DNA of 62,739 nucleotides, filler included, from Globobulimina sp. (taxonomy: Eukaryota), in the NCBI GenBank assembly GCA_003354225.1. It is 11 parts of 11 records of this genome, joined end to end, with 100 filler letters (N's around TTAATTAATTAA, not from the genome) between each part and the next. Parts side by side here need not be neighbours in the genome. Positions count along the whole stretch, not along the records: positions 34,321 to 39,929 come from PIVH01000491.1; 10 more parts are not named here. The stretch is one strand, 5' to 3'. A program made the translations under genes and the position numbers. The notes beneath the pieces were generated by a model that did not search any database, was not told the DNA's origin, and saw nothing but the letters and a program-made list of their open reading frames with translations. Below are positions 2,292 through 57,820 of the stretch, piece by piece. The first letter of the stretch is position 1. Each line of letters opens with the position of its first letter.

Positions 2292-3173
2292 ATGGATCGT
2301 AACTTACAACAATTAGAAGCCATCGAATACCTATCATCCGATGTCTCCATTGTTCCCGAAATGTTTCAAAATGTTGAAGTGCATGATGGTCGCCCACGTA
2401 TTCTGAAAATTAACAATCACTTAAAAATAAAATATGATATCAAATTTGAATTTGGCGAAAAAAATGTTTTGTCGCAGGTACTATCAAAAATACCATATTT
2501 ACAAAATATAATGGATGGTTATGGCAGTTATCTATTTCTGGCGGGTTTAATTGAATCATATTGCAAAGTACAGAGGGAAATATATGAAGGGAATTTAAAA
2601 GGTGATGGAAATATTTGTTTTGGGGTCAAAGAGGAGTTCGAATTCAATCAACAAATCACAAAATGGTGCGTTGGTAATAAAATTGGTGACAGTATGTTTA
2701 GCATTAACTTGTCATTAAAAAATTCGTTTTCAGATAGAAAATACGAATGTGTTTTGGTTGCAGATGATAAGAATGAAAGCAATGAAGGTGAGACTGGCGA
2801 GTTACATGTCGAAGATGGCGAATCATCGCTACACTGGAAAATTGACGAATTTTCAGATTTCAATGCGACTGATTGGCCATTGCTGTTATCGGTTTTTAGT
2901 GAAAATAAATGGACGCCGCGGTTCATCAGTAACCAATTAATGTGTATGATAAATGAATGTGTAACGAATAACATTCAAGAAAATGTGAATGAATTTAAGA
3001 AAAGTAATGGAGGCAATGATATTGTTGCAAATATGGAGGAGAATGGTGACATTACCGTTGATTCGCGAGTGTGGGACAATTTTTTTGTTGATATGAGTAA
3101 TATGAAACATTTGTTGGGTGAATGGATGAATCATTTGTTTACAGATCAATGTGTTTATGATTTTTGCGATTAA
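2292..3173 (+). CDS. Hypothetical protein
   Basis: Uninterrupted ORF of about 293 aa from the first ATG; no family recognised. Confidence 0.6.
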   Translation: MDRNLQQLEAIEYLSSDVSIVPEMFQNVEVHDGRPRILKINNHLKIKYDIKFEFGEKNVLSQVLSKIPYLQNIMDGYGSYLFLAGLIESYCKVQREIYEGNLKGDGNICFGVKEEFEFNQQITKWCVGNKIGDSMFSINLSLKNSFSDRKYECVLVADDKNESNEGETGELHVEDGESSLHWKIDEFSDFNATDWPLLLSVFSENKWTPRFISNQLMCMINECVTNNIQENVNEFKKSNGGNDIVANMEENGDITVDSRVWDNFFVDMSNMKHLLGEWMNHLFTDQCVYDFCD

Positions 3174-3241
3174 AAGTAATGTTTTTGTGTCTTTTTTTAA
3201 TTGTGCCAGTGTTACCGAACATTTTTGAAGTAGACAGTTTC

Positions 3242-5629: not shown

Positions 5630-5729
5630 NNNNNNNNNNNNNNNNNNNNNNNNNNNNNNNNNNNNNNNNNNNNTTAATTAATTAANNNNNNNNNNNNNNN
5701 NNNNNNNNNNNNNNNNNNNNNNNNNNNNN
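5630..5729. other. Artificial contig linker (N-run + TTAATTAATTAA + N-run). Also at 11354-11453, 17073-17172, 22792-22891, 28510-28609, 34221-34320, 39930-40029, 45635-45734, 51338-51437, 57040-57139
   Basis: Same 100-bp spacer ten times, with stops in all six frames. Genes are cut at the linkers and contig lengths fall from 5629 to 5600. Confidence 0.98.
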
Positions 5730-7777: not shown

Positions 7778-8986
7778 TCAATGACCTTCGTTAGAAAACT
7801 GTACTGGTACTGGTTGTTTGTCCACTGATAATATGAGCTTTTGAATTTGATAAAACAATGACTGTATATCCATCATATTTTTAATTCCGAGTTTAAACAA
7901 ACAGCCCAATGTAACACCATGCAAACACTGACCATTCAAACCCTGAGCATATGCGAGTGGAATAAGTATGTCCTTATATTTCAAATATCTGCCGTTTTCC
8001 AAATTAAATATCCAAACAAGAACATCATCCGTAGCCCATCCAAAATAATTATCGTATGTGCCTTCATTTACTTTTTCATGCTTCAACTTAGCAAATTTAA
8101 CCAACAAATTATTATATCTCCACTGAATTTGCGCATTTTCGTTCTTTAACTGATAATTCTGAGACGCCATCGAGCTGTTCAATTGTTGATATTTGTTAAT
8201 CTGTGCTGCAAACTGTATCCGCTGTTGATGTAATTGTCTGGCTAACGTTTCCAATTTACTTTTATACATTTCATCTTCGGCAGATTGCTTTTCATCAAAA
8301 ACGTCTTGATATCGAGTTACAGAATGCGCTCGATCTGGATACCATTTATCGAATTTAAAACTGACCCCTCTAAATGTGATTGTTTTTGTTTTAATTTGCT
8401 TTGCTTGGATCAATTCGTCAAATTCAACAATGCAAAGAATAGTGGCATTTAATTGTTTAATGGCTCCGGTTTTGGCAGCCATCCAACTTTCAACTTTGAG
8501 TGATTTGCACAGACTGCTTATTGAGAGATAGACCCACAGTTTGAAGCGTTTATGGTCAATACACAAATTGATGTTCAACACGAAGACTTTGTAGGACTTA
8601 GTGTTGTGCTGATAACTGTAGTAAGCTCTGACAATACGACCAACAGATTTAAGTTGATTTGAGTTGCATTGGAATACAAAGTGTTCAATCAATACTTTAT
8701 TTGTTGCTGTTTTATCCACTGTGAATGTCGCGACTCTGTATCTATTTGGTAACCAAATATCACGAATCTTACGTTTGTCTCCAAAAGCAATTTGGCATAA
8801 TTCATTGGATAATTCGCGTTCGTTATTAGGCCAATTCGTGTTTGGCAATATTGTAAATTCATAGTGTTTGGATTTATCATGCGGTCTGGTTGGGATTTGC
8901 TCGATTAGCATGTGATAATCTATTGGTGGCAACGGAGGGGATCTTCGTGGAAAGTTCAACGGAGGTGATTTTCGTCGAGTGCGCAT
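7778..8986 (-). CDS. Hypothetical protein with coiled coil and C-terminal SAM domain
   Basis: WATDDVLVWIFNLENGRYLKY...GLNGQCL...LFKLGIKNMMDIQSLFYQIQKL is SAM-like. ATG 8986 (MRTRRKSPP) chosen to avoid overlap with the opposite-strand gene. Confidence 0.7.
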   Translation of the reverse strand: MRTRRKSPPLNFPRRSPPLPPIDYHMLIEQIPTRPHDKSKHYEFTILPNTNWPNNERELSNELCQIAFGDKRKIRDIWLPNRYRVATFTVDKTATNKVLIEHFVFQCNSNQLKSVGRIVRAYYSYQHNTKSYKVFVLNINLCIDHKRFKLWVYLSISSLCKSLKVESWMAAKTGAIKQLNATILCIVEFDELIQAKQIKTKTITFRGVSFKFDKWYPDRAHSVTRYQDVFDEKQSAEDEMYKSKLETLARQLHQQRIQFAAQINKYQQLNSSMASQNYQLKNENAQIQWRYNNLLVKFAKLKHEKVNEGTYDNYFGWATDDVLVWIFNLENGRYLKYKDILIPLAYAQGLNGQCLHGVTLGCLFKLGIKNMMDIQSLFYQIQKLILSVDKQPVPVQFSNEGH

Positions 8987-11353: not shown

Positions 11354-11453
11354 NNNNNNNNNNNNNNNNNNNNNNNNNNNNNNNNNNNNNNNNNNNNTTA
11401 ATTAATTAANNNNNNNNNNNNNNNNNNNNNNNNNNNNNNNNNNNNNNNNNNNN

Positions 11454-14400: not shown

Positions 14401-17072
14401 TTGAGGTCGTTTGGTGGACATTCTAAATGCATTTTGCTGTACGCATCTAAGGCTTCCTCCCAACGGTTCAATTTCTCAAACCATGTGGGCTTGATATTGA
14501 TTTGCGGTTTGTGCATCTGAGTGTATTGCAAGATACCTTCTGCGGCTTCATTTTGTTGTAACTGGTTATTGATCTTCAACAATGATTCGGCGGTTAGCGA
14601 GTAAGAAGTGTTGAATTTTGCATGGATCACTGAGATATCGATGTTATTACTATAATGGGTCTGAACAATGTATGAAATTTAAGCAGTGTGGGACAACGAC
14701 ATTATGCGTTAAACAGAATTTGTACGGAAAACTTTTAAGTCAGCTTGAAAAATGCTGAAAACACACCTGGTGTTTCATGCCAGCATGATACAGTTTCGTA
14801 ACATATCCATTATAGGCGGTATGATGCTTACTTCCATGCATATGTGATGAGGCCATATGAATGGCGGAGCGTCCTATGGTTAAACAAGCCGATCGGAACT
14901 GTCGTTCTTTATAATATAACGCATTGGGAAAGGAATGACTTAATTCCGCTACGTGAGCTAGTACCGGTATTTCAATCCAGATGGAATTATTTTGGCGGTC
15001 CATAAACTCGACCAAACCCAACAATATCTTCTTCACCTTTGCCGGAACTAACTTTGTTTTTTGCAGTGCAGACATCAAACTGCGTCGACATTCATGTTGG
15101 AATTTATCATTTAGTTCCAACCAACACGACAGAAATGCTGCATTGAACAAGTCATTGGCCAATCCTTTATATTTCTGTGCCAATGACGCATTTACTCGTA
15201 GCTCTTTGCGTGGATTTTGTGATAACAGTTCGCATTGAAAGCCGTGCAGCCACGCAAACCAATCACGTTCGGCGGCTCTCCCCGTAATATCCCAAGCTTT
15301 GCGCAACATTACCTCGGCTACTTTTAATTTTTCTTGCTTTTCATCTGTATTTATCGGCTCCTTTTCTTCCAAATCCTCATCGCCTGCATCAAACAGATGC
15401 TCTTCGGCCGGGTTTTCAATGCTGCCTTGTCGCGAAAATTTAGACGACCGACCTGGGACATAACCTGTGGCAGAAAAACAAATATTAATCCTAAAAAAAA
15501 ATAGATTGTAAAAATATACCATTTAATTGTTTCTGTAAAGACGCAGATAAATATTTATCGTGAAATAATTGCTGTGTTAATTTGTTGACACTCGCATCCG
15601 ACATATTACTTAAATTATAATTCATTAAACGATTCAATAACTCACTGTATTGTCGATGCGATTTCTTACATTTGGTAACCGTCCGAGTCATCATCGGCAC
15701 GAATATTAAATAGTCCTTTCCCATTTTAATCATCATCAAACACAGTGTGCCCATAGTCGCATTAAACAACGATGTATCCACTTTATGTCCATACGTATTG
15801 ATAATATGTGTCAAGGGATGAATAATCCGCGAAGTATAGGCATTGAAATCGCATTTTGTGCTCAATCTACCAATGCATTCAATCGATTTAATGCGCACAA
15901 GCAACGAGACATCATTCGATTGAATCAATTCCATAATCGGTGGTAACACTAAAAACAAAAAATCCTGCAAATTGTTACCAAATATAGTCAATGCATTCAA
16001 CGCTGAAATGGTGCTACGTTCGCCACCGCCGCCAGGTCCACGACGTAGCACCAACAATAACTTCGGTAGCAAGGCATGTAAATATTGCTTAAATTCGTCC
16101 TGGATCGCTCTGCAAATCTCAATCATAACATACAATAATTGGTCTTGTAACTCGTAATACGATTTAATATTAGTCTGCGAAGGGATATTTGCGGCATTTA
16201 TCACTGCTTTTTTCTTCTTTTTAAAGCCCACTGTTTTGGCGCCATGGCCATTCATCATATCTTGTTTGGACTCAGTCTGCAGATTTAATTGAACCGGATT
16301 GATACTTGCAATATTATGCAATGACTGGGACGAATGGGTGGTTAACATGGATGTTTTTGGGAGATAGCCATTGCCAAAGGGACCAAATGAATCACTGCCA
16401 GTACGTACATGGTTATATATATCCATATCATTGTCATTATTCATCAAGTTATCATTGTCAATGGATAGGGATTGATTATTTAAATTGTTGTCTCCCATCA
16501 TAAACGAAGAGGGATGGTTATAATATGGATGGTAGCGGTTATATACACCGCCGCCACCAACCGCCGGCATACTCGCAATGGAATGTTTGTTGTGTGCCAT
16601 ATTTGGATGGCGTGTCCCACTCCGAATGGCCCGCATCATCATCAAAGTGTAGGCATTCTCATCCCATAAATTGTGAATCAGCTCAAATATCTCGGCTAAA
16701 TAGGTGCGAATATGAGACTTTACGATGCCAATCAATCGCGCCAATTGTTGCAATAACATGGCACGTTGCGAGGCACTATGAAACGTCTTCAAATTGCTTA
16801 AAATTGGCGGGATTACATTTTGTAGATATGATATGCTCTCTGATTTGATAAACGCAAATATCTTTGTGATATTACCTAAACTCTCTCGATGGTATTCATG
16901 CAAACTCGCATTATGTACAATTAATATCAATGCACGCAGCGCCACATAAGCGTAATACTGCGGATCGCGAGAACCTGTAATCAGCAAAATATTACTCTCC
17001 GATAAGAAATCAGACTCTTCTTCGTCATAAAACTCATCCTCGTTAATATTATCTGTATTCATTTTAACCTTT
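11454..17072 (-). CDS. TOR: Target of rapamycin kinase, truncated at both ends; introns 15519..15465 and 14766..14661
   Basis: HEAT repeats, FAT region (WFEKLNRWEEAL; LQDVLRLLYLWF), FRB (RVAILWHEMWYEALIEASRLF) and kinase N-lobe (QRPRKL, LLKGKEDLRQDERVMQLFGLIN). Confidence 0.96.
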
Positions 17073-17172
17073 NNNNNNNNNNNNNNNNNNNNNNNNNNNN
17101 NNNNNNNNNNNNNNNNTTAATTAATTAANNNNNNNNNNNNNNNNNNNNNNNNNNNNNNNNNNNNNNNNNNNN

Positions 17173-22791: not shown

Positions 22792-22891
22792 NNNNNNNNN
22801 NNNNNNNNNNNNNNNNNNNNNNNNNNNNNNNNNNNTTAATTAATTAANNNNNNNNNNNNNNNNNNNNNNNNNNNNNNNNNNNNNNNNNNNN

Positions 22892-28465: not shown

Positions 28466-29123
28466 TCGATGAAATTAGAGTATGTAGCACATTACAACAT
28501 CAACAACTGNNNNNNNNNNNNNNNNNNNNNNNNNNNNNNNNNNNNNNNNNNNNTTAATTAATTAANNNNNNNNNNNNNNNNNNNNNNNNNNNNNNNNNNN
28601 NNNNNNNNNTAGTTTTTCACACTTACTTATCGACATCATTTAGTTTGCTACAGCAAAAATGAAAAAAAATGTATTCTGGCCATATTAACGTATCGATATT
28701 GATCGGATATTATCATGGGGTTTAAGCTCGTTGCTGGCAGGCAAATTAATTGAATAAATTGATGTTTATGGCATCGAATGTGTATTTATATATGGATTGT
28801 TTGGTATATTTTGTTTGGTATATTTTGGGATATAAACAATTATCTACAAAAGAAGTGGACCATGACACATGAAGCAAAATATGAGTTTTGTCAAACATTT
28901 ACATTGTTGATGTCAATAAGAAATGATTCTCAATTCATGTTTTGTTTAATATTAATGTTGGTTAATATTGGAATGCAATGTTTATCATTGAACGAATTTT
29001 GTTCATACAAATGGACCAAGAATTTGGGTGTGATATAAGTCATTTATTCCGGCCTACAAAAAGGGTTTCGATCCAATAAAAGAGATTTCCAATTAATTAT
29101 TTGCCAAATATGTGCCATACAAA

Positions 29124-34220: not shown

Positions 34221-34619
34221 NNNNNNNNNNNNNNNNNNNNNNNNNNNNNNNNNNNNNNNNNNNNTTAATTAATTAANNNNNNNNNNNNNNNNNNNNNNNN
34301 NNNNNNNNNNNNNNNNNNNNGTGAAATTACTGATAAATTTATATATTGTGTTCTTTTGCAATACGTTAAATTCAGAATGTAGATATTGCAATCTTGTATT
34401 TAAGTCTTGTGGGAGACGAAAATATACGCTTGGTTTTAGGTTATTGTTTGGGTTATCAATTGTGATTAATTGTGGTTTCAATTACCTGGTTTATTTGTAT
34501 GATTTGTGTTTTATGCTTGCTCAATTATTTTGGCAAGGTGCTAGGTATTAAGTAAGTGAAGTAAGTTGACAATTTTATTAAGTCGACAATTAAATGTTTG
34601 TTATATCACTCAAATTAAA

Positions 34620-36454
34620 TTAAAATAGACATTGATTATTCATATAAAAAGGATATTTATTCAATTCACGATATTTTAATGGTTTTTTAAGCCATTCAAC
34701 AAATTTTAAATATTCAACACGATCTCGTCCATAAAATTGATTTGCATTAAAGTCGAATTTAAAATTAGTATAATATTTGGGAGTAATTTCCCTAAATTTC
34801 AGCGAGAATAAATCACAATAATTGTTAAATTTTACCATATCATATCTCGATAAGGCATCTGGTAATGTATTAAATGCAGAAGAAACCCATTCTAATCTGC
34901 AAAATATTCGATATTCAATTAATAAAATACATAATTCATATACGAACATCATAAGTGTATATTTTGGTGACCATTTACGACACATTGCGTAGTAACAAGC
35001 AATGTTATCAATATATAATAATAATACTTTGCCTGTTAACGAATATTTATATGATTCAATCAATGATAAAACACAATGGGCTTCTTTTAAATTAATGTGT
35101 TTTGACATCATTTCATTTTTAAATTTATATTTCGCGCAAATATCATTCACAACAAAGCCTGCTCCAATTTTACAAGCATCAGTCGCTGCATATACATTAA
35201 TTGAAGGGGTATTAATTATAAATTGCATAGGCACCGACCTAATATATTCGGCATATTTTAACCAAAATTTAAAGTCATTCACAATCGATAAAGGTAACAC
35301 AATATACTCTGTTTTTTTTATGTTACCATTTCTAATGTTTTTATAAATATAATATATAGAATTGTATACTAAGGATTTTGTACATTTATTGAGCTGCGAC
35401 CAATGCATTATTTTACCACATAAAGATTCTAAGGCTTCACCTGAGACAACGCGATAATTAATAACTAAATGAATAAATTTACGTAATCGATTAAAGGCTT
35501 TATCAGGGATAGAAATTATATTTTTATCTAAATCCCATAACAACCCATAAAGCACTGCATTTGTACAATTATGTATTGATTTTTTATGAGAAATATCAAC
35601 ATTAAGTTCATTCATTAAATTATCGAATTCATTTTCAAGTATATCAACATCTTGTTTTGTGACACCGGCTAACACAAAATCGTCAATATGAACAAGTGTA
35701 TTGCCCATTAAATGTGGATATTTGCCTTTTAATTTGCAATTATTAAGGATCCAAATTAAGAGTGTTGCAAACCACTGGGAATTAGACGGTGCCGTCCTGA
35801 CACCATATGGCTGCTTTCTATCACGGAAACGAAGCCCGAATAATGAATATCCGATAAAGTCCGCATCCTTTTGAGGTAATGGGACTTGTCTGAAAAAATC
35901 GGATAAATCTCGCAATGCAAAATAATTCTTATTTATTAATAATTTAATATATTGGATCATATTTGGAAGTTCTCTCATTTTACAGCAATCCTTCCTGATC
36001 CATTGATTTATACTCGTTTTATTTTTATCGTGGTATGAACCATTACGTATTACTCTCACTTTTGTATAAAAACCGTTTCCGTCTTTCTTTGGAACACCAA
36101 ATATCATACAATAATACTTAGCGTCTTTATTAATTGGCTCAATTTGGCCATTTTTACATTCATCTGATAATTTATCAATAAATGCAATAACTTCATTTAC
36201 CGAATTACAAATATTTTTAATTTTTGTTGATAAATTTATGGGTTTTGAAGGTTTGCCATTTTTATCAATTTGGCCATCTGTTTTTAGAAACAATGGAAAT
36301 CCATTTTCAATATATTTGATTTCTAATTTGCTGTTTTCTTTTGATTTTAAATATCTTTTAAACGCTTTAATATTTAATTTATTTTTAAATTTTGATCCTT
36401 CTGAGTGTAATATTTGTAATTTTTTTACTTTTTTTGCGATTTCTGGGGATATTG
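34620..36454 (-). CDS. Reverse transcriptase + RNase H (DIRS-type), complete 3' end, no native ATG start
   Basis: RT motifs FGVPKKDG, SINQWI, RDLSDFFRQ, QPYGVRTAP, VHIDDFVL. RNase H motifs ATDAC, HINLKEA, YIDN, NTLPDALSR. Frame is open up to a CAG at 36457-36455. Confidence 0.92.
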
Positions 36455-36676
36455 CTGATTATGAAACTAATTAAGAAATGTTCTACAAATTTAAACCAAC
36501 ATCACAACGACAACAGGTATTATTTGTATACATATCACAAATGTAAACAATTAATACATAAACATATAACTCAAGTGTTATAAACTTAGATCAATAGCTG
36601 ACTAAGAATACGATTTAAATTCTAGTTTTATCAATAAATTAATTAAATAAAATGATGTATTTTTAATTTTAGTTAT

Positions 36677-37632
36677 TTAAAAACCTCCACATTGACAAAG
36701 AGGATGATCAGCATTAATATGAACAATACATTTATGTGCTTTTGGACATGGAATTGGGCCGTTTTGTTTATAACATTCACCAAAGGCATTATACGGCGCA
36801 CATTGACGATCTCTAATATCATAATGGCGACCAGTCCCAGTTAAAATATGTTTAATTTTATAATATGCATCATTTATCAAATTAGGTTTTTTGTTTTGAA
36901 AGTTATTATTTTGTCTGTAATTATTTGTATTCTGATTATTATAATTTGATTTATTATTCCTTTGATTATTGTAATTTCTTTTGTTATTATATGAATTTCT
37001 ATTATTTTTATCGCGATTATACTGATTTGCTTTTAATTTATCAAAATATTGTTTGACTTTATTTTTATTATTGTCATTATTTTTAATTTGAATAAATGAG
37101 TTATCTTTATTTGCTTCATCGGACTTATAATTTGAAAATTTATTTTGTAAAAATGAATCCAGCGACACCTTACTTTTTCTATTTTGATTGTTATTCATAT
37201 AATTATTTGTAAATATGCTATAAAAAGATTGATCCTTCAAAAGCGCTGCACGCATTCCATTATTTGACCAAATATAAAATAATTGAGGAACAAATAAATT
37301 ATCTTTGATTGATGGCAAAATAACATCTAATAATTTTGATAAATCACATCTTTTGTAATCTAACCAAACACGAATTAAACGATGCAAATCCACTTCATCA
37401 TCATTCTCTGGTTTTATTTTATTTAATTTTGTTTCCATTTCCATCATAAAATTAAGGATAAATTTAATAGATTTATGAAAATTCCATTTTGATTTAAATA
37501 TAGATTTTATTTCCTTTGAATAATTATTATGTGATAATTTATCCTCAATTATCAAATATTTATTGATTTGATACATTAATGAAATAAAAGACAAATCTTC
37601 TTCAACTGTGCCAGAAATAAATAAAATCAAAT
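36677..37632 (-). CDS. Gag-like ORF of element A (Asn-rich linker, C-terminal Cys/His finger)
   Basis: CAPYNAFGEC...CPKAHKCIVHINADHPLCQC, directly upstream of RT. Confidence 0.75.
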
Positions 37633-38027
37633 CTAATTTGATTGAAATTAATATTTTATCATTTGTGTTAGTTTTTAAATTGGCAGAATTTGCAGGCGAA
37701 TAAATTAAAGTTAATAAATTGTGATTAAGTGGGCCTTATTTCAATACATTAATTGGATACATTATATTATTAAATTTAACATATAAAAAATAAAAAAAAT
37801 TTTAAAATTTTATTTGATTGTTTGACAACATTTTGATTGTTTGACATTATGTGATGTTGGTATTTACAAATTAAACAAACACAAAACTATTAATTTACGA
37901 AATATTGTACATAAACTTGGAGGGTCACACCAAGAATACCAATAAAAGTAAGACAATAAAAGTCAAGTAAATGTCAAAAAGTTTCGAAAAAAAATAATAT
38001 AGAAAAAGGAAATTAATATAAATATAC

Positions 38028-39596
38028 CGTGTAATTCTTGTACGATATCTCTATTCGTTAAACGTTTACCATCCAAACCTGCTCTTTGATTCATTAAATT
38101 ATTAATAACATTTATTTCTTTACTTTTTAATTTATTAATTGTTAAATCAACCATTTATTAATTGCTTCTTCTTTTCTTTTTTTATCAATTGCTGCACAAA
38201 TAAGGTTATTACGATTAACTGAAATTAATTGATTAAAACAAGTTTGATTTGGATCATATTCAAATGACGATTTATTTGCATAATTAATTTTATCCATTTT
38301 ATTTTTTAATTCATTAAATTTGGTATGTACACATTGATCGAAATGATTTTTCATGACATCTAAATCTGATTTAGTTATATTTTGATTATTTTTATTGAAT
38401 CTTAGTCTTTTAATTGGAGGTTGATCACCGGTCTCAACAATATCATCAAATATACCATCGCTAACTGACCTTTTTTTGGGGGAAAATTTATTAATTAATG
38501 ATAATGGGAATTTGCGACCAGTTAAAACCAATTTATATTTCCGTAAATTAATAATCACACCATCTGAACTAATTATCTTTGTTTTATACAATTTAGAATT
38601 TATCGATGGTTTAATTCTATTAATATTTGATATTAATTTTAAATGTTCTTTTTCTTTGGCAATAATTGCAATATATTTGATAACCGGATCATTTTTAGGG
38701 AGATTAATATCAAAATCAAATAAATTAATATTAGCAACAATTGCTACCAATAATACTTTCCGTTTGATCTGAGAATCATTAATGAAAATATTTTCAGATT
38801 CATATCTCACGGAAACACAAAAATTATCAAAATTAGCATCCAGCGGTGATTTAGGATCATTTTCAGATAAAATGTCATCAAATAACTCATCAGATTTTTT
38901 CTCAGTTTTATTTTTATTTTGATTTGAATCAGATTTAGAATTAAATGAAAATTGATCATTATTAGTATCAAATATCTTTGTCATTCCTGATATATTTTCA
39001 TCAAGAAAATCAGCATCATTTTCATCTTCATTATTAACCTCATCTTGGGAGTGAGCTATATTTGTATTAACATTGGAGTCAGTATCATTTGTATTTGATG
39101 CCAAGTCATCTAAATATTTAATACAATTAAATGAATATATTTCGTGATATTTATCAAATTCTGCTTTATATTTTTTAGTTTTATATCCAATTAATTTATC
39201 AACAGTTATTTCTTTACATACTAATCTGACTAAATCTGGCAATGATTGATGCTCATTCATATAATAAGTGCGACTATGTAATACATTGAGAAATAATTTA
39301 AGCGAATCAAGGATTGATCTCTTTGATTGAGGGACAAAAAATATATTATTCTCCGGAATTTGAAGATATTTAATCAATAAACATATTTCAATTTGATTTA
39401 AATAATTTACCTCATCATTTACAGATTTTTTAAGGGAGTTCTTACGAAATGAAACAACCCAAATATCATCATTTAATTCAGATATATCCTCTGCATAACT
39501 TTCATAAATTGATTCAATATTTATTTTTTTATATTGTATACATGGTTGTTTTGTTAAATTTGTGTCTTGTGAATTGAATGCTGTTTCACTTGACAT
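38028..39596 (-). CDS. ORF1 of element A, unknown function; frame change at about 38154
   Basis: 484-aa ORF plus an overlapping 42-codon segment (38154-38028) whose sequence parallels the end of element B ORF1. Confidence 0.65.
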
Positions 39597-40029
39597 TGAT
39601 TGATTGATTGATGTTTAATTTTTAAATTTTGATTTAAGAATATTGCGACGATAATACTTGATATCGTAACTTTTTCGTTTTTGCAAGAATTGAAAGTTGC
39701 AGCAATTCGGCTAATTAGAGAAGTGAAAACGAAAAAGTTTGTTGAAGCTCAGAAAACCTTACACTTCAACAACTAACACACACACATAATATCAAAATAA
39801 GCAGAAATTCTGCGTTACACTTGAATTTATGACGTATTAAAAATCCAAATGTTGCAAATATTAAATGTAACAGATCATATTGGACAGAAACATATGGCAT
39901 AAAAAAGAATGATGAGATATCATTTGAGCNNNNNNNNNNNNNNNNNNNNNNNNNNNNNNNNNNNNNNNNNNNNTTAATTAATTAANNNNNNNNNNNNNNN
40001 NNNNNNNNNNNNNNNNNNNNNNNNNNNNN

Positions 40030-41008: not shown

Positions 41009-42863
41009 ATGTCCAAGACACATGAAAAAGAGAATAAGTCGTCAGAGGCTGAACATTTGTTTGTTTACGCTACAGCTAAAGCAGGGATGGAAGATGTGGA
41101 TAAAAATAAAATCCAAGAAACAATTTACAACGCATCTAAAGGATCCGCATATTTTGAAAACGCACAACGTAAAGCGGCGCAAGTCGAAGAAAGAATGGAA
41201 TCGGTTAAAAAACGATTAAAACAAATATCAAACACACAAATTGAACAAATGCAAATTCAATCTAATAAATATATAAAACAAATTGACAGTCTGCGCGATT
41301 TATCTCGAACGTGGATTCACTGTGATATGGATATGTTTTATGCGGCCGTAGCAATGCGCGACAATCCATCATTGAAAGGGAAACCCGTGGCCATTGGTAG
41401 CATGTCAATGATCTCCACCACAAATTATGTCGCAAGGAAGTTCGGAGTCCGTGCTGCGATGCCTGGCTTTATTGGAAAAAAGTTATGCCCCCAAATTATA
41501 TTTGTTGAGCACAATTGGTCTGCGTACAAACAAGCATCGAGTTAAGTGCCATCTAATACATTGATGTCGATACAGAGCAGCATCAACAGATAAAGTGCGA
41601 GAAATTGTGGCGGAATATGACCCCGATTTTACCTCTGCCAGTTTGGACGAAGTGTACTTGGATGTTACTGATTATTTGCAGTTGCATGCGGATGAGGGCC
41701 AGCACATAAATGGTAGTGATATTGCACAGGAAATAAGGGATAAAATCTTTGCTGCCACACAATTGACAGCGTCCGCCGGTGTTGCTTGTAATAGAATGTT
41801 GAGCAAAATTGGCAGTGATATGAATAAACCAAATGGACAGTTTATATTAGAAAGTGATGGTAATAAAATTAAAGCATTCATGAACACATTGAATGTGCGA
41901 AAGGTACCCGGCATTGGCAGGGTCACACAGAGAATTTTGAAAGAAATTGGAGTGGAAATGTGCAGTGATGTGTTATGTAAAGCAGCTTTGGTTAAATTAT
42001 TCTTCAAACATGCAACATATGAATGGTTATTGCAATCATGTTATGGCATAGCGAGGAATAAACGCGATGCGAATGAGATACGTCAAAGAAAGAGCATATC
42101 GCAGGAAAGGACATTTGGTGCAAAAGGGATAGCACTTGAAACAGAATTGGAAGCAAAGATAATTGAAATTTGTGACAGTTTATGTGCAGAAATATTAGAG
42201 AAGAAAATCAGAGGTAAAACTGTGACGATTAAATTGAAAACAACGCAGTTTGAAACAAAAACGCGTGCGCATTGTTTAGGCTTTTATACCAATGATAAAA
42301 AAGTGATACGTAGCAATGCGATACAATTATTAAGGAAGGAATATCCGATTAAAGTGAGATTGTTAGGGGTTCGGTTAAGTGCATTGGAACAAAAACTCCC
42401 TCAAAGTAAGTTACAAAAACAATTGGACGCATTTTGGAGTGTCAAACAAAAAAATAATCATAATCATAGTCATAATAAACGGAAAAGAACTTGGAATGAA
42501 ATGATGGAAGAATCTGGCGATATATTACCAAATAAACGAAGGAGAATCAGTGTCACAGAGGAGAATGGCGGAGATGTTGATATTATAAATAAGAATTTGA
42601 ACACAAATAATAAGAAAAAAAAAGATAAAATGACTATTTCAAAGATGTTTGAAAAACAAGATAAGAAAAATAAGACTGAAAAAGCACAAAAATATATTTG
42701 TCCAAAATGCAACAGATTTGAATGTGTTTCAAATCTTCAATTAAATCTTCATTTGGATCAATGTTTGCAGCAAACGCAAAATAAAAAGAAAAAAAGACAG
42801 AAGAAAGTGGTTAAAAACACATTGACACATTTTTTCCGTCAGAAGACGACGAATCATTTATAA
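41009..42863 (+). CDS. POLK: DNA polymerase kappa (Y family); intron 41541-41589
   Basis: KAGM N-clasp, HCDMDMFYAAV, TTNYVARKFGVRAAMPGF, ASLDEVYLD, SDMNKPNGQ, UBZ finger CPKC...HLDQC and PIP-like TLTHFF. Confidence 0.95.
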
Positions 42864-45634: not shown

Positions 45635-46118
45635 NNNNNNNNNNNNNNNNNNNNNNNNNNNNNNNNNNNNNNNNNNNNTTAATTAATTAANNNNNNNNNN
45701 NNNNNNNNNNNNNNNNNNNNNNNNNNNNNNNNNNTTGCTGAGCTGAGGAATGTTATTATTTGTTTGGCGTTTATTGGTGTCTCGAATATACAGATTTGAG
45801 TGCGAACGTTGTAATTTCTATAACAAATAAGAAGTGTATAATTATATACATTTGGACACAAGCGCCATTATAGCCACAAATACAAATATAGCATCTTTAT
45901 ATATTACGAAGTTTTATTTCTTCGCAGAATAAATAAAACGTAGTGTTATGATTTATTGTGAAAACACTTGTTATTTCTTACTTGCTTTTTTTTTTAGTTT
46001 ACATCAACAAACTTTACTTCTCTCTCTTCTCTCTGTCTTCGCATTTAATTCCACCGAGCCGCTGACCTCAAACGCTTTTGACGCAAACCTTATTTCAATC
46101 TTTGTGTAGTATATACGG

Positions 46119-48393
46119 ATGGCATTGACTTTAACAAAACAAGAATTTGATGAGTTTATCGATGATATTAAGAAGAATGACAAATTATTTATTATGTCCC
46201 CATCGTTAATGAAAGCACCATTGAAAGGTCCAGATGTTGCTCCGGTGAATTTTTATAAGGAAGATTATGAAGAAGTGATTAGTATGATTCAAACGAATAA
46301 ATTCGTTTATATCATGCCCACTGCATCGGCATCGTTTCGAACTGTTTTAGATCGATTTAAATCGAAATATAACGACGCTGCTGCCAGACCATCAAATGTC
46401 CGCCGCACTGAAAAAGAATTATTATCCAGTTTCTGCCGTAAAGTATCCTATGAACATGTTATATCATTTCGAGAATCGCCAAAATGGAGTGTTTAATGTT
46501 CAAACATCTGAATATTTCGTAAAACAGAAACAGCAAACTGCAGTAACCTCCGATGATCAATTGAATGATTTGCAAACGTCACAAAATGATGATGACATTT
46601 TAATGAATGCCCAACTTACCGATGATGGCAATGATATAAAACCGTCGGATTTGATGGTGCTATCACAACAAACCAATTTCGCGCATCTTCAAGGCTCTAC
46701 ATCTCAGGCTTCTCCTTCTCCGAATTCTAACACAAACAATACAAATAATAACAAGAAACCAGCTGATTTACAAACTGTCGATACAACAAACCATCGATCC
46801 CCGGATGCTACGAAGGATGCCATCCCTCTCACTACCAACGAGGAAAAGGAGCAAAAAACAGTGGTAGTAATACCGAAACGATCCAGATCCTCCGTATACA
46901 AACCAGATAAGAAAGAATGTGATGATTCCTCTCCTTCCACTTCCATTCAACAGAAACATTCCGATGATCGCAAACAAAAACCACATTTACATACAAATCG
47001 AGATAGAAACAACAAACATCATCGACATCGAACCCATACCAAACCAAGACATTCCAATAGAAATCATCATCAATCTCCGTTGCTTTCGCAGCATTCCCAT
47101 AATACATTTGATTCAGAGCTCGACGATGATGATATTTTACAGTATGATCCAATTCGTACACCTTCTCCTTCTACAACGTCCACATCGTCCTTCAATGCAT
47201 TAGCGAATTTATCCAAATATTTGGTGAAGAATGAGATTTATCAACATCTCAAAAATACGAAATTATCCGTCTTTGAACATAAAAATGTTCGCGACGATGC
47301 CTTGAGAGTTAACAATTTATTACTTACTCGTTCCTCTCAATTACATGAACTCAGTGCCAATGCGAATGCAATTAATTTATATGCGACGGCGCGAAACCAT
47401 TTTAGTGAGTTATTATGGAAAATTGAGGCAAAAGCGGAACAGGGCAGAGATATCAATGAAGTCATCAAACGATACAATGAAGAACGCCGTATTGCGATCA
47501 TTGCATTTATTGACCACATTGTAATGACCGGAGTTACATTGGATATGGTATTTTCAATGTGTTTCCATGATCGATTCACTGAAATTGCGCGCTCCGATGA
47601 CCATCGTTCGGTGTTTGATTTTATTTTTCATTTAGTGTTTTATGGACATTATGAAAATAAGAAATGTTTGAAATATTGGTGGCGATGGTTTGTGCCAAAA
47701 ATATTACAGCGATTTTTAGCATTGCAAGAAAACCGCTTTTTGAACGCGAAAGGCGGCCAAGTAAAAGCATGGAATTATCCATTCTTTAAAAAACGAATTA
47801 TTTATGCACAACTCCGATATTTTAAAAAGAGAAAAGCCGATAAAATGTCGCCAAATGCCGGCAGACATAGTGAAAATCCGCATGGATCAAAAAGAAAGAA
47901 AGAATTTCATCGACATATTTTAGGCACTTCCTCGCATTCACCACCACCAACATCTCCATTTAAATTTGATACAAATCCATATATTGAAAATATTGAAAAT
48001 GAACATAAACAACCAATCATTATTACAAATACAAATAATAATAATATACATAAACAAATTACAGCATTATCAACTAATCTTAATGCAAAAATTGATACAT
48101 TGACCCATAATTTGAATAAAGCAAAGAATCGATATCAATATTCCAGACATGATACACCTAAAAAGAAATTAGTCACTCTGCAATCCCACGCAATTTCGGC
48201 TCTCACCGTAGATCGCTCGCAAGATAAAGAAGCGGTCCTTTTATTATCGTCAGCCGTGGCCAGTGAAGAGAATCAAACGCATAATGAGATTATGATGGAT
48301 ATTATGAAAAGAAGGATGAATGGTAATAAACGGGCCAATACCGCCTCGAATGATGATTTAGTAAACAAAGTTGAAGGTCTCTCATTAGATTAA
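46119..48393 (+). CDS. ORF1 of element B, in two overlapping frames (46119-46496 and about 46480-48393)
   Basis: N- and C-terminal segments are weakly alignable by eye to element A ORF1; low-complexity middle. Confidence 0.65.
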
Positions 48394-48876
48394 CTGTTGT
48401 GTTTTAGTTTAATTATTGTGCTCACAAAATTAAATTGAAAACTAAGTACCTCTCTAAACTTTACTTTATAACTTACCACGCTTTGGTTTGCTTTACGAGG
48501 TGGGGCTGGTCGGTTTATCCCAATATGTCACTGTACTGCAGCTGAGTCTCTGTACACGCATAGAATGATACCGCCTTTCTCATTCTTGGATTAATCTCCT
48601 TAAGTACGGTGTTTATATTGTAAGTATCACAATTTATTTTTTATTTTGTGCATACACCATTAACTTTCTTTTCATTCTGTCTATTTTGTATATATAAAAA
48701 GCGTTTCTACTAAAACGTCAACCTATTTTGCTAACTACTTTTACCAAAGTACCAATATTTTATCTCCCCGTGAATTATGATTAAAATGATATACTTTTAC
48801 CAAAGTACTCACGTGTAACTTTACAAAGTTTACCAACGTTTCCAAACACTAACAAAAAACTATTATACTTTGACAG

Positions 48877-50012
48877 TCCCGGCGAGAATAAAAAATAGAC
48901 GACAAGCAAGAGACGATGTAATTCAATTTTTTACTGGATTTGCAACAAGAGAAGATTTCGGGATACCGAAATTATTACATTCTACGTTAAAATATTTATC
49001 TGATTCCTACAATATCTCCGATATCAGTTCCACGTCGAAAGAAATTTATTCATCATTCAAATCCAAACATGCCATTTTCTTTATTCTTGATGCCTGGACA
49101 CATACATTGGATTTCGTATTGTCGGCATTAAATAACATAAAAGAACAGAATCCATTGATCAATATCTTAGTGGATTGGGTCCAAATATGTAAAGCGAGCA
49201 TCTTTTTATTCAAAGAAAAACTCGCTCCCTATGGCAAGAAACCATATTTTAACGTTGTCAATTTCTGGGCGGCTGTCATTGAAATATTTGATTACTATTT
49301 GGACCATGCGACTCAGTTCAGTTTATTAATGGATAATAATTATTATACAGACCAATTTAACACCATCTCGCCACGAAACAATGTCATCCAATTTTTATTG
49401 AGCACATTCCCTGAATTTAAAATGGATGAATACGAAAAGGATAAAAAAGTCAATATTTATATTGATAATCAAAAATCCTACCATTCCAACAGTAATCCAA
49501 CAAATTTCAACAATAATAATTATAAAAATGATACCAAACCATGGAGAAATAAACAAAATCCGAATTATAATCAGAATCAAAACCATAACAATGACAATCC
49601 CAATCCGCGAAATTATAATAATCGCAATCCAAATGCCCGAAATGCAAACAATCGAACTCCAAATAATCGGAACAATAACAATAGAAATCCAAACAATCGC
49701 AATCAAAATAACAACAGATCCCAGAATAGTTATTATGCGTCAAAAGAGAAAACAAGAGCGTTCCGACGCTGTTGTCATGAATGTATGGGCGAATATGGTG
49801 TGCCATGCCCCAATGACTGTTGCATGTGGCGATTTTTTCTCGGATCTTGTTCAAATCCACGAAACCAATGTGGTACAAACAGCGATCAATTCAAACATAT
49901 TTGCGCATTCCATCCGGATCAAAACCATACGTTCCGAAATTGTGAAACAGCCAAATCAAAATCTGAAATTTATAAACAATATATCAAGAAATTCAGTGAA
50001 TTTTCTTTTTAA
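48877..50012 (+). CDS. Gag-like ORF of element B
   Basis: Asn/Arg/Pro-rich linker followed by CMWRFFLGSC...C...FKHICAFHPDQNHTFRNC. DDVIQFFTG...EDF parallels DLILFISG...EDL of element A. Confidence 0.75.
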
Positions 50013-50223
50013 ATTATAATATATCTATATTTTACCTTTGTAGTTTTGTGTGGGGGGATAATTTAATAATTAGTTTCTTTCGTTCATTTACCTATGAAAT
50101 ATGATCTAATCTCTTGTGATTCTTTCCTTTCTGTGTCAACGTTTCCATTATCGAAGACATTGAAAAGTCACTAAACAAACACTAAAACAGTTTTTTAATG
50201 TTTGAACTCAAAATACTACACAG

Positions 50224-51337
50224 CCTTTGACCCGCAGTTCGCAAAAGAACTAAAATCAAGGCTTGATCAATTTACATCATTACATAATCAGCCCTCAAAA
50301 TATGTCAACCAATTGAATATTCCGGCATTTAATAAATATTTACAAGGAAAGCGAAAATATAAATCTGATATAAAATGGATAACAGTCGGCTTCCCTCTGT
50401 GGTTAAAAACACATTTTAAATCAAAAAATCAGCCATTAACAAAACCAAATAATCTTTGCACAAAAATATCAAATATTGCAAATACACCGCAAGAAGCTAT
50501 TGCAATCTTAGATAAAATGATAAAAGAAGCTGAAAATGGACAAATAGAACCATTTTTCGGCAAACCAGAATATATTGTTATGATATTTTGTGTGCCAAAA
50601 AAAGATGGCCAGGGTCGATACACAAAATTCCGTATAATCAGAAACGGTTCGTTTAAAACAAAAGTAACCTCTGCCATAAATGAGTGGATTCGACCCATAA
50701 AATGTAAAATCCCTTCTTTACCAAATTTAAAACAATATGTAAAAACTCTCATTGATTGTAATTTCTTTGCGATCAGAGATTTATCGGATTTCTTTCGCCA
50801 AATCGGACTTTGTGAGGAAGATTCGAATTATATTTGTTATTCTTTATTTGGGTTAGTATGGAGAGATCGTAAGCAACCTTATGGTATCTCTTCAGCCCCT
50901 GCAAACTGCCAATATTTTGCCCAAATATTAATTTGGATTTTAGATAATAAAATATTTGACAAAAATTGGAGAAATAAAACGTTAGTACATATTGATGATT
51001 TTGTATTGGGAGCAGTAAAAGAAGCAGATTGTGTTGAGATGGAACACCGATTTGATATATTGATGAAGGAATTAAATGTTCAGGTTTCTCTCAAAGAAAC
51101 CAGATTTATAAAAACGTGTCAAAAATCTGTGTTATATGGTATTTTTTTCGATTTACAACACAAAACCATCGGTATTCCTCCAATAAAATATAAAAACTTT
51201 AAACAATTATTATTTTACACAATGCAATATCGCGTAATCACAGGAGCTGCCCTTGAATCCATTTGTGGAACCATTATGCATTGGGCCCAATTAAAACAAC
51301 CAACAAAATCACTTTGTTGGAATTTATTACACTTTAT
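50224..51337 (+). CDS. Reverse transcriptase (DIRS-type), 3'-truncated
   Basis: FCVPKKDG, AINEWI, RDLSDFFRQ, QPYGISSAP, VHIDDFVL, ALESICG. Confidence 0.92.
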
Positions 51338-51437
51338 NNNNNNNNNNNNNNNNNNNNNNNNNNNNNNNNNNNNNNNNNNNNTTAATTAATTAANNNNNNN
51401 NNNNNNNNNNNNNNNNNNNNNNNNNNNNNNNNNNNNN

Positions 51438-57039: not shown

Positions 57040-57820
57040 NNNNNNNNNNNNNNNNNNNNNNNNNNNNNNNNNNNNNNNNNNNNTTAATTAATTAANNNNN
57101 NNNNNNNNNNNNNNNNNNNNNNNNNNNNNNNNNNNNNNNTGAAAAGTATGTTTGTCAGTGAAAAAACAATGATTTTTCTAATTCAAACTATTACAGTATA
57201 TAAAAATCTTAATTGTATTGGTAAATGGTAACCCCTTAGAAAATCTATTTTTAAAAAAAATTAACCAACGCAAAATCTATATTTTTTTTTACATTTTAAA
57301 AAAGAAAGTTCACAAAAAATCGCATAAAAAAATCCAATTTTTTTAAAAAATCGCCAAAAAATCGCCAATTTGTTTACATTTAATGAAACAAAGATCACAA
57401 AATTCATAAAAAAAAATATAGACTAATCCTGTATTTTTTTGTGGTCATTCAATCCTTGCACTCAAAACTTCAGCGACCTCGCCACGACAAAAATCGTTTG
57501 AAAATGAGTTACATCACTTACATGCAAAATCAGTTCATACTGTTATTTAGTATTCTTCAGAGGAATATTATTCGATATGTGAAGGAATTTGGTCAAAAAG
57601 GGTTAATCCCTTTGAGAAAACCTTTACACGAAAAAACGACATTTTAAGCTTACTTCACTGTGATTGATTTAAACTTGAGATGAGCAACGTTTCTGTACCT
57701 ATTTATTTGTTGTCGGAGCGTTTAATGCAACCCATGAACACACTTGCTTCAGTTCAGCATTCTCAAAATTCAAATAATACATCAGAAACACATGTTTTTA
57801 CGCTATATACAAAGGATACA

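Follow-up and report, generated by a model that had tools for sequence, protein, structure and literature searches.

How does a retroelement express its enzymes when their reading frames lack start codons and are closed off from one another by stop codons in all three frames? The question is raised by element A, which occupies the minus strand of contig PIVH01000491.1 (positions 34321-39929; 5.6 kb, 23-31% G+C) in a window of 62,739 bases. By the window we mean the whole stretch of DNA that was analysed, eleven contigs of ~5.6 kb each from Globobulimina sp. (assembly GCA_003354225.1). On its strand element A presents, in order, an open reading frame (ORF1), a gag-like ORF and an ORF for reverse transcriptase (RT) and RNase H, with an ATG start in ORF1 only. 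An earlier note, made from this DNA alone, had proposed a tyrosine-recombinase element that reaches gag and RT by alternative splicing from one donor and keeps an unspliced genome. The comparative tests reported here all support that outline; its gag site in A is probably not the main one, and it did not notice a frame change in A's ORF1.

The problem has two parts: (i) whether the AG dinucleotides at the heads of the start-less ORFs are splice acceptors; and (ii) to which upstream exon they would be joined. We consider it probable that a single donor at the end of ORF1 is joined to alternative acceptors, an expression strategy that appears to be undescribed for tyrosine-recombinase retroelements.

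RESULTS

Family layout, missing start codons and closed spacers

A second member, element B, lies on the plus strand of another contig of the window (45735-51337) and is truncated within RT by the contig end. Metagenome contigs scanned with the RT alignment gave 13 related loci (L001-L013), whose RTs are 31-56% identical to that of A; they stem from at least four record prefixes and include both AT-rich and GC-rich members, with L003 the closest relative of A. Scans of genome contigs and of viral contigs gave no further family members. The long loci share one layout: an ATG-started ORF1 of ~490-780 codons, a gag-like ORF of ~350, an RT/RNase H ORF of ~600 and a fourth ORF of ~428 codons.

Of 27 downstream ORFs, one (the L012 RT) has an in-frame ATG in the interval from the upstream stop to the proposed acceptor AG, and the median first ATG lies 90 codons downstream. 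In element A the gag ORF (37735-36677) has no in-frame ATG until codon 53 and the RT ORF (36458-34620) none until codon 116, so the earlier note was right that neither has an ATG ahead of its conserved N-terminus. The first codons vary (GCA, GCC, GAA, GTG, GAT, GGT). The spacers between ORFs are 82-651 nt long, some only 82-101 nt; 20 of 21 have stops in all three frames, and 6 of 21 lack any ATG. The ORF1-gag spacer of A, for example, has 8, 6 and 5 stops in the three frames. Frameshifting or readthrough between ORFs is ruled out by these stops.

Proposed acceptor sites

The stop-to-stop N-termini of 7 gag, 12 RT and 8 tyrosine recombinase (YR) ORFs were aligned with MAFFT, and every AG was marked by its phase. 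At the onset of protein conservation a phase-1 AG is present in all 27 ORFs. Among the YR ORFs it stands in one column in 8/8, other columns of any phase reach at most 4/8, and none of 5000 shuffles reached 8. The residue in that column varies (A, E, G or D) and the preceding triplet encodes L, T or I or, in L006, is a stop codon; further YR starts in L003 and L012 fit by eye. For RT, one column holds a phase-1 AG in 7/12, a count reached by 1 of 5000 shuffles, and all 12 sites fall within 12 columns. MAFFT gaps aside, the RT sites of A, B, L001, L003 and L006 are in one register, the split codon being followed by (F/I/Y)(D/S/N)P. Homology between the RTs of A and B (tblastn, 49.7% over 376 aa) runs from residue 1 of the ORF, that is, from the acceptor, as had been noticed before; the ACACAG/ of B (a slash marks a proposed splice site) ends at 50223 in the same register. 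In gag, the sites of B, L001 and L006 share one column (3/3 of that clade), and in A, L003 (TAATCAG/AT) and L008 (CTTAAG/AG) the AG is at the first codon of the ORF. The gag shuffle test was uninformative, the best phase-1 AG column being an internal coding position.

The sequence context of the acceptors played no part in choosing them. Position -3 is C in 17 of the 27, T in 7, A in 3 and G in none (YAG 24/27), against 25%, 12%, 37% and 26%, respectively, at 2976 other AGs (C or T, 37%). A CTAA lies 9-46 nt upstream in 10/27, against a background of 6.5% (p = 4e-6), and ACTAA in 6/27 against 1.8%. The G+C-rich L012 and L013, which come from another record prefix, have the same ACAG/ phase-1 starts for RT and recombinase, so the layout is not tied to an AT-rich host. 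No nucleotide similarity between elements was found in the spacers, which implies that the shared sites do not result from recent common descent. Features of spliceosomal introns are thus present in the form of matching-phase GT...AG borders, a branch-point-like motif and a pyrimidine at -3. On sequence grounds it is likely that the acceptors are genuine splice sites of some kind.

A proposed donor at the end of ORF1

A phase-1 GT occurs at one aligned column near the end of ORF1 in 6/6 elements (A, B, L001, L003, L008 and L009), compared with 2/6 for the runner-up column. It comes after a conserved C-terminal motif, (D/N)x(L/V)xx(L/V)x, and the ORF1 stop follows 0-21 codons past the GT in 5/6. 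The donors read G/GTATAT (A), G/GTCTCT (B), G/GTTTAT (L001), A/GTTAAT (L003), G/GTAAGT (L008) and G/GTACGT (L009); the GT is retained even where the codon differs, GGT versus AGT. The positions that the earlier note had read in A, a donor GT at 38027-38026 after RDIVQELH-G, TAATCAG/ at 36455 and TTAG/ at 37633, all in phase 1, were recovered on the sequence, and the check that it had suggested, on conservation of GT, branch point and AG among family members, gave GT 6/6, AG 27/27 and CTAA 10/27 against 6.5%. Layout, missing ATGs, closed spacers and the conserved positions, phases and context of GT and AG are thus matters of sequence comparison.

Host genes in the window have putative introns, recognised by frame continuity alone, that end in ACAG/ acceptors. 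The intron of the TOR kinase gene (15470-15525, minus strand; 55 nt) reads G/GTATATTT...CTGCCACAG/ with acceptor CACAG/, and its donor is the same nine bases, G/GTATATTT, as the proposed donor of A. That of a Y-family polymerase gene (41540-41580, plus strand; 37 nt) reads A/GTTAAGT...ACAGAG/. Because host introns have the same kind of donor, donors of the A type are plausible in this host.

Two relatives carry small canonical introns within ORF1 that restore its frame: GTGAGC...TTATCAG in L008 (1940-2010; 68 nt, phase 0) and GTATGT...AACTAAC...ACAG in L009 (1100-1160; ~67 nt, phase 1). A mini-exon of ~100 nt follows each and runs up to the shared donor. Such introns are absent from A, B, L001 and L003. 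The family thus retains spliceosomal introns in its DNA copies, which implies that the unspliced RNA is the one reverse-transcribed.

ORF1 and the proposed gag acceptor of element A

ORF1 of A is ~36-39% identical, in blocks, to that of L003. When the C-terminus of the L003 protein was compared with A by tblastn, the match ran up to ..DPI in A frame +1 (to A-coordinate 1770) and resumed from MVDQ.. onward in frame +3 (from 1776), with two L003 residues between. The earlier note had carried the upstream frame into the donor; the phase-1 GT is real and conserved, but the ATG-started ORF1 of A, as assembled, does not reach it in frame, owing to a frame change at ~38160-38154. A 29-nt mini-intron (GTTGAT...AAAAAG) behind this change was considered and rejected, since L003 protein matches flank it on both sides with two residues between. 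The stretch after the frame change, the 3' end of the proposed shared upstream exon, is 40% identical to the final 43 residues of L003 ORF1, and the ORF1 C-terminus of A also aligns with those of B, L001, L008 and L009. Element B has a frame change of its own near 46490-46500, where tblastn switches frame relative to the continuous ORF1 of L001. The copies A and B are probably slightly damaged, or mis-assembled at a homopolymer. Contigs of the sequencing runs searched give DNA-like cover of most of contig A, with gaps at 37874-38247 and 38435-38808; the first gap spans 38154-38160, so the frame change lies outside their cover.

The gag acceptor of A is probably not the AG at 37633, as had been proposed, but the AG at 37736-37735. 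The former is a real phase-1 AG; it lies within sequence conserved as protein, and for that reason the latter is favoured. The gag tblastn match to L003 starts at gag residue 11, and ~34 codons before 37633 align as protein; they include a YSPxNS block in which the Tyr-Ser-Pro codons differ synonymously between A and L003. L003 has no AG at the place matching 37633, and 37736-37735 is the sole phase-1 AG upstream of the YSPxNS block in A. The spacer upstream also contains a short duplicated, palindromic stretch (TGTCAAACAATCAAA twice, 37785-37823).

Encoded proteins

The RT of A matches Pfam RVT_1 just below the cut-off (E = 2.3e-6; 27.9 bits against 29.6). It has 60 homologues at 31-56% identity, several with precomputed RVT_1 or RT_RNaseH matches, and the alignment contains an HIDDF motif and a D..E..D..D RNase H block, ~70 residues past which the RT ORF ends. 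The gag-like ORF of A has no Pfam match; C312, C321, H334, C336, H344 and C349 are invariant in 7/7 sequences. A structural model of it (overall predicted local distance difference test score, pLDDT, 57) suggests that residues ~25-210 form a helical domain (pLDDT near 80); a Foldseek search of the PDB with this model gave no fold match (best E = 1.1). ORF1 of A likewise has no Pfam match, and its AlphaFold model (pLDDT 31) is unusable for assigning function.

A 7-sequence profile of the fourth ORF matches the PDB integrase 3nkh (E = 0.003) over the catalytic part, and the ORF has conserved motifs SRPxE, YSxRIGG and WS...RY, which we take to be the R, HxxR and Y motifs of tyrosine recombinases. 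By this match and these motifs, the fourth ORF of the relatives appears to be a tyrosine recombinase. Pfam, including its Phage_integrase model, does not detect it. The earlier note had looked to sequence beyond contig A for the recombinase and the termini. A recombinase ORF is indeed found downstream of RT in 10 related loci, and that of A would lie beyond the contig end; no terminal repeats were found in contig A. Compared by tblastn with the terminal 34321..34619 of A, the YR proteins gave no match, and in L003 a recombinase remnant begins ~650 nt after the RT stop.

Pfam gave no match to an aspartic protease or a DDE integrase in the ORF1, gag, RT or fourth ORFs, and no Dam or methylase match for a methyltransferase-like domain between RNase H and recombinase. 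No inverted terminal repeats with an internal complementary region were found in A, B, L001, L003 or L008.

Coordinates, contig setting and the complete unit of L001

The features of elements A and B are collected in Table 1, together with the artificial linkers (N44-TTAATTAATTAA-N44) that join the contigs of the window. Because the joins are artificial, adjacency across linkers is meaningless and neighbouring genes say nothing of the genomic position of element A; the remaining contigs carry eukaryotic genes, e.g. those for TOR kinase, PCMT and the Y-family polymerase. In DNA run X1, depth on contig A is 42-66 at 34321-34507 and 39744-39929 against ~10-14 in mid-contig (3-6x; about threefold at 39744-39929). 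The ends of element A are thus present in further copies, which probably broke the assembly there.

Table 1. Features of elements A and B and contig linkers, in window coordinates
Feature	Position	Strand	Details
A: 5' untranslated end, to contig end	39597..39929	-	
A: ORF1 as assembled	38142..39596	-	ATG 39596-39594, TAA 38144-38142; 484 codons
A: one-base frame change breaking ORF1	38154..38160	-	tblastn against L003
A: end of ORF1 after the frame change (42 codons), plus first base of split codon	38028..38154	-	MVDL...QELH
A: proposed 5' splice site GT	38026..38027	-	CACG/GTATATTT, phase 1; last exon base 38028
A: spacer or proposed intron 1, donor to revised gag acceptor	37735..38027	-	293 nt
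A: revised gag 3' splice site AG (probable)	37735..37736	-	GAAATAAG/GC, phase 1; overlaps upstream in-frame TAA
A: gag acceptor of the earlier note	37633..37634	-	ACTAAC...TTAG/, phase 1; probably not the main site
A: gag-like ORF	36677..37734	-	351 codons plus stop; Asn-rich linker, C-terminal Cys/His cluster
A: spacer, gag stop to RT acceptor	36455..36676	-	222 nt; stops 5, 10 and 8 in three frames
A: proposed RT 3' splice site AG	36455..36456	-	TTTCATAATCAG/CA, phase 1; in-frame stop one codon upstream
A: RT/RNase H ORF	34620..36454	-	611 codons after acceptor, plus stop; catalytic HIDDF
A: 3' spacer	34321..34619	-	contig end precedes any recombinase ORF, 299 nt after RT stop
B: ORF1	46119..48376	+	ATG 46119; end ...NKVE then G
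B: proposed donor GT	48377..48378	+	GAAG/GTCTCT, phase 1
B: proposed gag acceptor AG	48875..48876	+	CACTAAC...TTTGACAG/TC, phase 1
B: proposed RT acceptor AG	50222..50223	+	CACTAAA...TACACAG/CC, phase 1; RT ORF to contig end 51337
Linkers	5630-5729, 11354-11453, 17073-17172, 22792-22891, 28510-28609		
Linkers (continued)	34221-34320, 39930-40029, 45635-45734, 51338-51437, 57040-57139		

Locus L001 (8133 nt) has 119 identical bases at 1-119 and 8015-8133, a period of 8014, and is a complete unit of 8014 nt. Such end identity would be expected of a circular molecule, of tandemly arrayed copies or of A-B-A-B split repeats that were collapsed. Where its 3' and 5' non-coding parts meet there is a strong hairpin (L001:7988-8046; fold z-score -7.7), with 11-bp perfect inverted repeats around a 3-nt centre in a 25-bp imperfect palindrome, and a weaker version of the sequence occurs upstream of ORF1 in element B (45897-45950). 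The hairpin is a candidate recombination or junction site for the recombinase.

DISCUSSION

A proposed model of expression

We propose that element A is a slightly damaged copy of an Ngaro-like element of the DIRS order that consists of ORF1, a gag-like ORF, RT/RNase H and a tyrosine recombinase. The unspliced transcript would be both the RNA that is reverse-transcribed and the message from which ORF1 is translated. A fraction of the RNA would be spliced: a single phase-1 donor close to the end of ORF1 (38027 in A) would be joined to one of three phase-1 acceptors, which mark the first codon of gag (37735), of RT/RNase H (36455) or of the recombinase, giving ORF1-Gag, ORF1-RT/RNase H and ORF1-recombinase fusions. 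Splicing here would take the place that frameshifting has in Gag-Pol expression. Use of the sites, pairing of each of the three acceptors with the one donor and production of the fusion proteins are what we infer from the comparison. For the broader claim the balance tips only slightly in favour: that a whole scattered lineage, known from several metagenome and draft-genome records and with RTs down to ~31% identity, replaces Gag-Pol frameshifting by alternative splicing, fuses three start-less genes to one N-terminal protein and has its intron-bearing RNA copied back.

Several points weigh against this model. On the donor side, only six donors were seen, five of them probably from one assembly, and GTCTCT (B), GTTTAT (L001) and GTTAAT (L003) match GTRAGT poorly. 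The ATG-started ORF1 of A is out of frame with the donor, and as assembled no fusions could be made from that ATG. It would be unusual for every enzyme to bear an ORF1 of 490-780 residues, and the element encodes no protease that could cleave it off. On the acceptor side, three sites read AAG, among them the revised gag site of A; the L002 gag and L006 RT sites were picked by eye among several AGs; and the shuffle control disregards the relatedness of the sequences. In L012 an in-frame ATG precedes the RT acceptor, and in L009 one comes just after the YR acceptor.

Direct products of the proposed splicing were also not found. No ORF1-RT or other fused protein appeared in protein searches, which is weak evidence, as most entries are ORF calls from DNA. 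An RT search of representative proteins listed 150, the longest of 721 aa, none with an ORF1-like extension; a word-index search for longer proteins gave no fused forms, and a protein search with L001 ORF1 gave no match at all. The predicted junctions are absent from the contigs of three runs, all of one sample and none recorded as RNA, a result that is uninformative either way. ATG-initiated or fused intact copies had been named in the earlier note as evidence that would speak against its proposal; one upstream ATG in 27 ORFs and no fused protein is what the searches gave.

Other explanations

The evidence for the acceptors, with 27 sites, is much stronger than that for the donor, with 6. The acceptors could accordingly be real and the upstream exon be something other than ORF1, either a short leader elsewhere or a trans-spliced AUG leader that ends in phase 1; separate proteins with a short common N-terminus would then be made. 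Such a leader sequence is, to our knowledge, not known. Spliced-leader trans-splicing has been reported from another rhizarian, Paulinella (PMC6053224). Under a leader mechanism, however, a phase-1 GT at the conserved end of ORF1 in 6/6 elements, with the stop 0-21 codons later in 5/6, would be a coincidence; ORF1 is the sole ORF with a conserved ATG, and host genes here, e.g. PCMT, use their own ATG. We regard a leader as unlikely. A different use of the same acceptors would be constitutive splicing in sequence, with a donor at the end of each preceding ORF and an ORF1-Gag-RT/RNase H-recombinase polyprotein as the product. Ogre is reported to splice between its ORFs (PMC3735527), and element A does have phase-1 GTs close to both stops, 2 codons ahead of that of gag and 3 ahead of that of RT. 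The acceptors would each require a phase-1 partner, however, and none is present in the last 25 codons of gag in 1/10 elements (L001) or in the last 25 RT codons in 5/12 (L001, L005, L009, L011 and L012). GT positions at the gag and RT ends are not conserved, and sequential introns with donors there were rejected for want of a conserved phase-1 donor; this arrangement is very improbable.

Splicing might not be involved at all. The downstream ORFs could be translated from full-length or subgenomic RNA by non-AUG initiation, internal ribosome entry or reinitiation, and polycistronic translation of such kinds is common in retroelements and pararetroviruses (PMC5902531). This would leave unexplained the constant phase-1 AG, the enrichment of YAG and CTAA, the conserved GT and the variable first codon. 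Some spacers, of 82-101 nt, are also short and not conserved, and no Rfam family matched contig A at E up to 1. We rate translation without splicing as decidedly unlikely. It could also be held that the elements are dead relics and the missing ATGs and spacers meaningless decay, for ORF1 is frameshifted in both A and B and the RT ORFs of L003 and L006 are split. Decay, however, would not keep the phase of AG and GT, nor would it be expected beside open frames of 320-630 codons in 27 ORFs of 15 elements that have diverged to 31-56% identity; the start-less layout, moreover, recurs at both low and high G+C, in members that represent four record prefixes or more. That the elements are relics is scarcely credible. 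The single donor at the end of ORF1, joined to alternative acceptors, is the reading that we prefer.

Meaning of the proposed strategy

Retroelements need much structural protein and little enzyme from one RNA, and the enzymes must enter the same particle. Textbooks describe frameshifting, readthrough, a single polyprotein or a Gag-only message produced by splicing. The strategy of element A, if confirmed, would be another solution, in which one coding donor and three coding acceptors place a common N-terminal module on every product. Among Ngaro-like elements it would be the first mechanism of expression to be worked out. It would also account for the start-less orphan ORFs as which automatic annotation presents these elements, and long alternative introns would have a natural example in a genome whose own putative introns are only 37-110 nt. 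The prediction is sharp, as it names specific exon junctions: 38028 to 37734 or 36454 in A, 48376 to 48877 or 50224 in B, and 2548 to 3211, 4508 or 6472 in L001.

Comparison with known systems

By gene content the family appears to belong to the DIRS order and to be nearest Ngaro, although split direct repeats are not among the features seen. The definitions of Ngaro and DIRS followed here are those given in PMC3783388 and PMC8547959. RT and RNase H together in pol, a feature of the order, are present in A. According to PMC3783388, DIRS elements carry inverted terminal repeats and, within pol, a methyltransferase-like domain; these DIRS1-like features were not found here. Like DIRS1, the family combines RT/RNase H with a tyrosine recombinase and probably replicates through unspliced RNA; unlike DIRS1, it has no detected methyltransferase domain or terminal inverted repeats. 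It resembles Ngaro in having a gag-like ORF, then RT/RNase H and then a separate tyrosine recombinase, with no protease, DDE integrase or methyltransferase detected, and the 119-base end identity of L001 is what an assembler would give from A-[ORFs]-B-A-B repeats. It differs from Ngaro in the extra long ORF1 upstream of gag, and in that the three downstream ORFs are start-less and set off by closed spacers of 82-651 nt, rather than ATG-initiated, overlapping or frameshifted. Native splicing of a tyrosine-recombinase retroelement was not reported in anything that a search of the full-text literature brought up, the reviews of Poulter and colleagues lying outside that search, and none is mentioned in passages of PMC7192593, PMC6681497, PMC8547959, PMC5718144 and PMC3783388.

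Splicing is documented in long terminal repeat (LTR) elements. In the plant Ty3/gypsy element Ogre it takes place between ORFs, in copia and BARE it yields an RNA for Gag alone, and it also occurs in CRR and for Bagy2 env (PMC3735527). Like Ogre, copia, BARE1, CRR and Bagy2, the family of element A would keep an intron-bearing genomic RNA and let host splicing shape its protein output. The spliced LTR elements have one intron, which removes pol or joins two ORFs, whereas one donor and three alternative acceptors are proposed here; they carry an integrase, whereas this family carries a tyrosine recombinase and every proposed product would share the N-terminal ORF1.

The retroviruses, with the foamy-virus pol mRNA as one example, use one upstream donor and several acceptors and package an unspliced genome. 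Their donor is in the untranslated leader or early in gag, and their spliced messages encode separate proteins with an AUG of their own. The proposed organization of element A is similar in its one upstream donor, several downstream acceptors and unspliced genome. It is dissimilar in that a long coding exon leads up to the donor and an AUG is missing from the downstream ORFs, and for this reason in-frame fusions, rather than separate proteins, would be the expected products.

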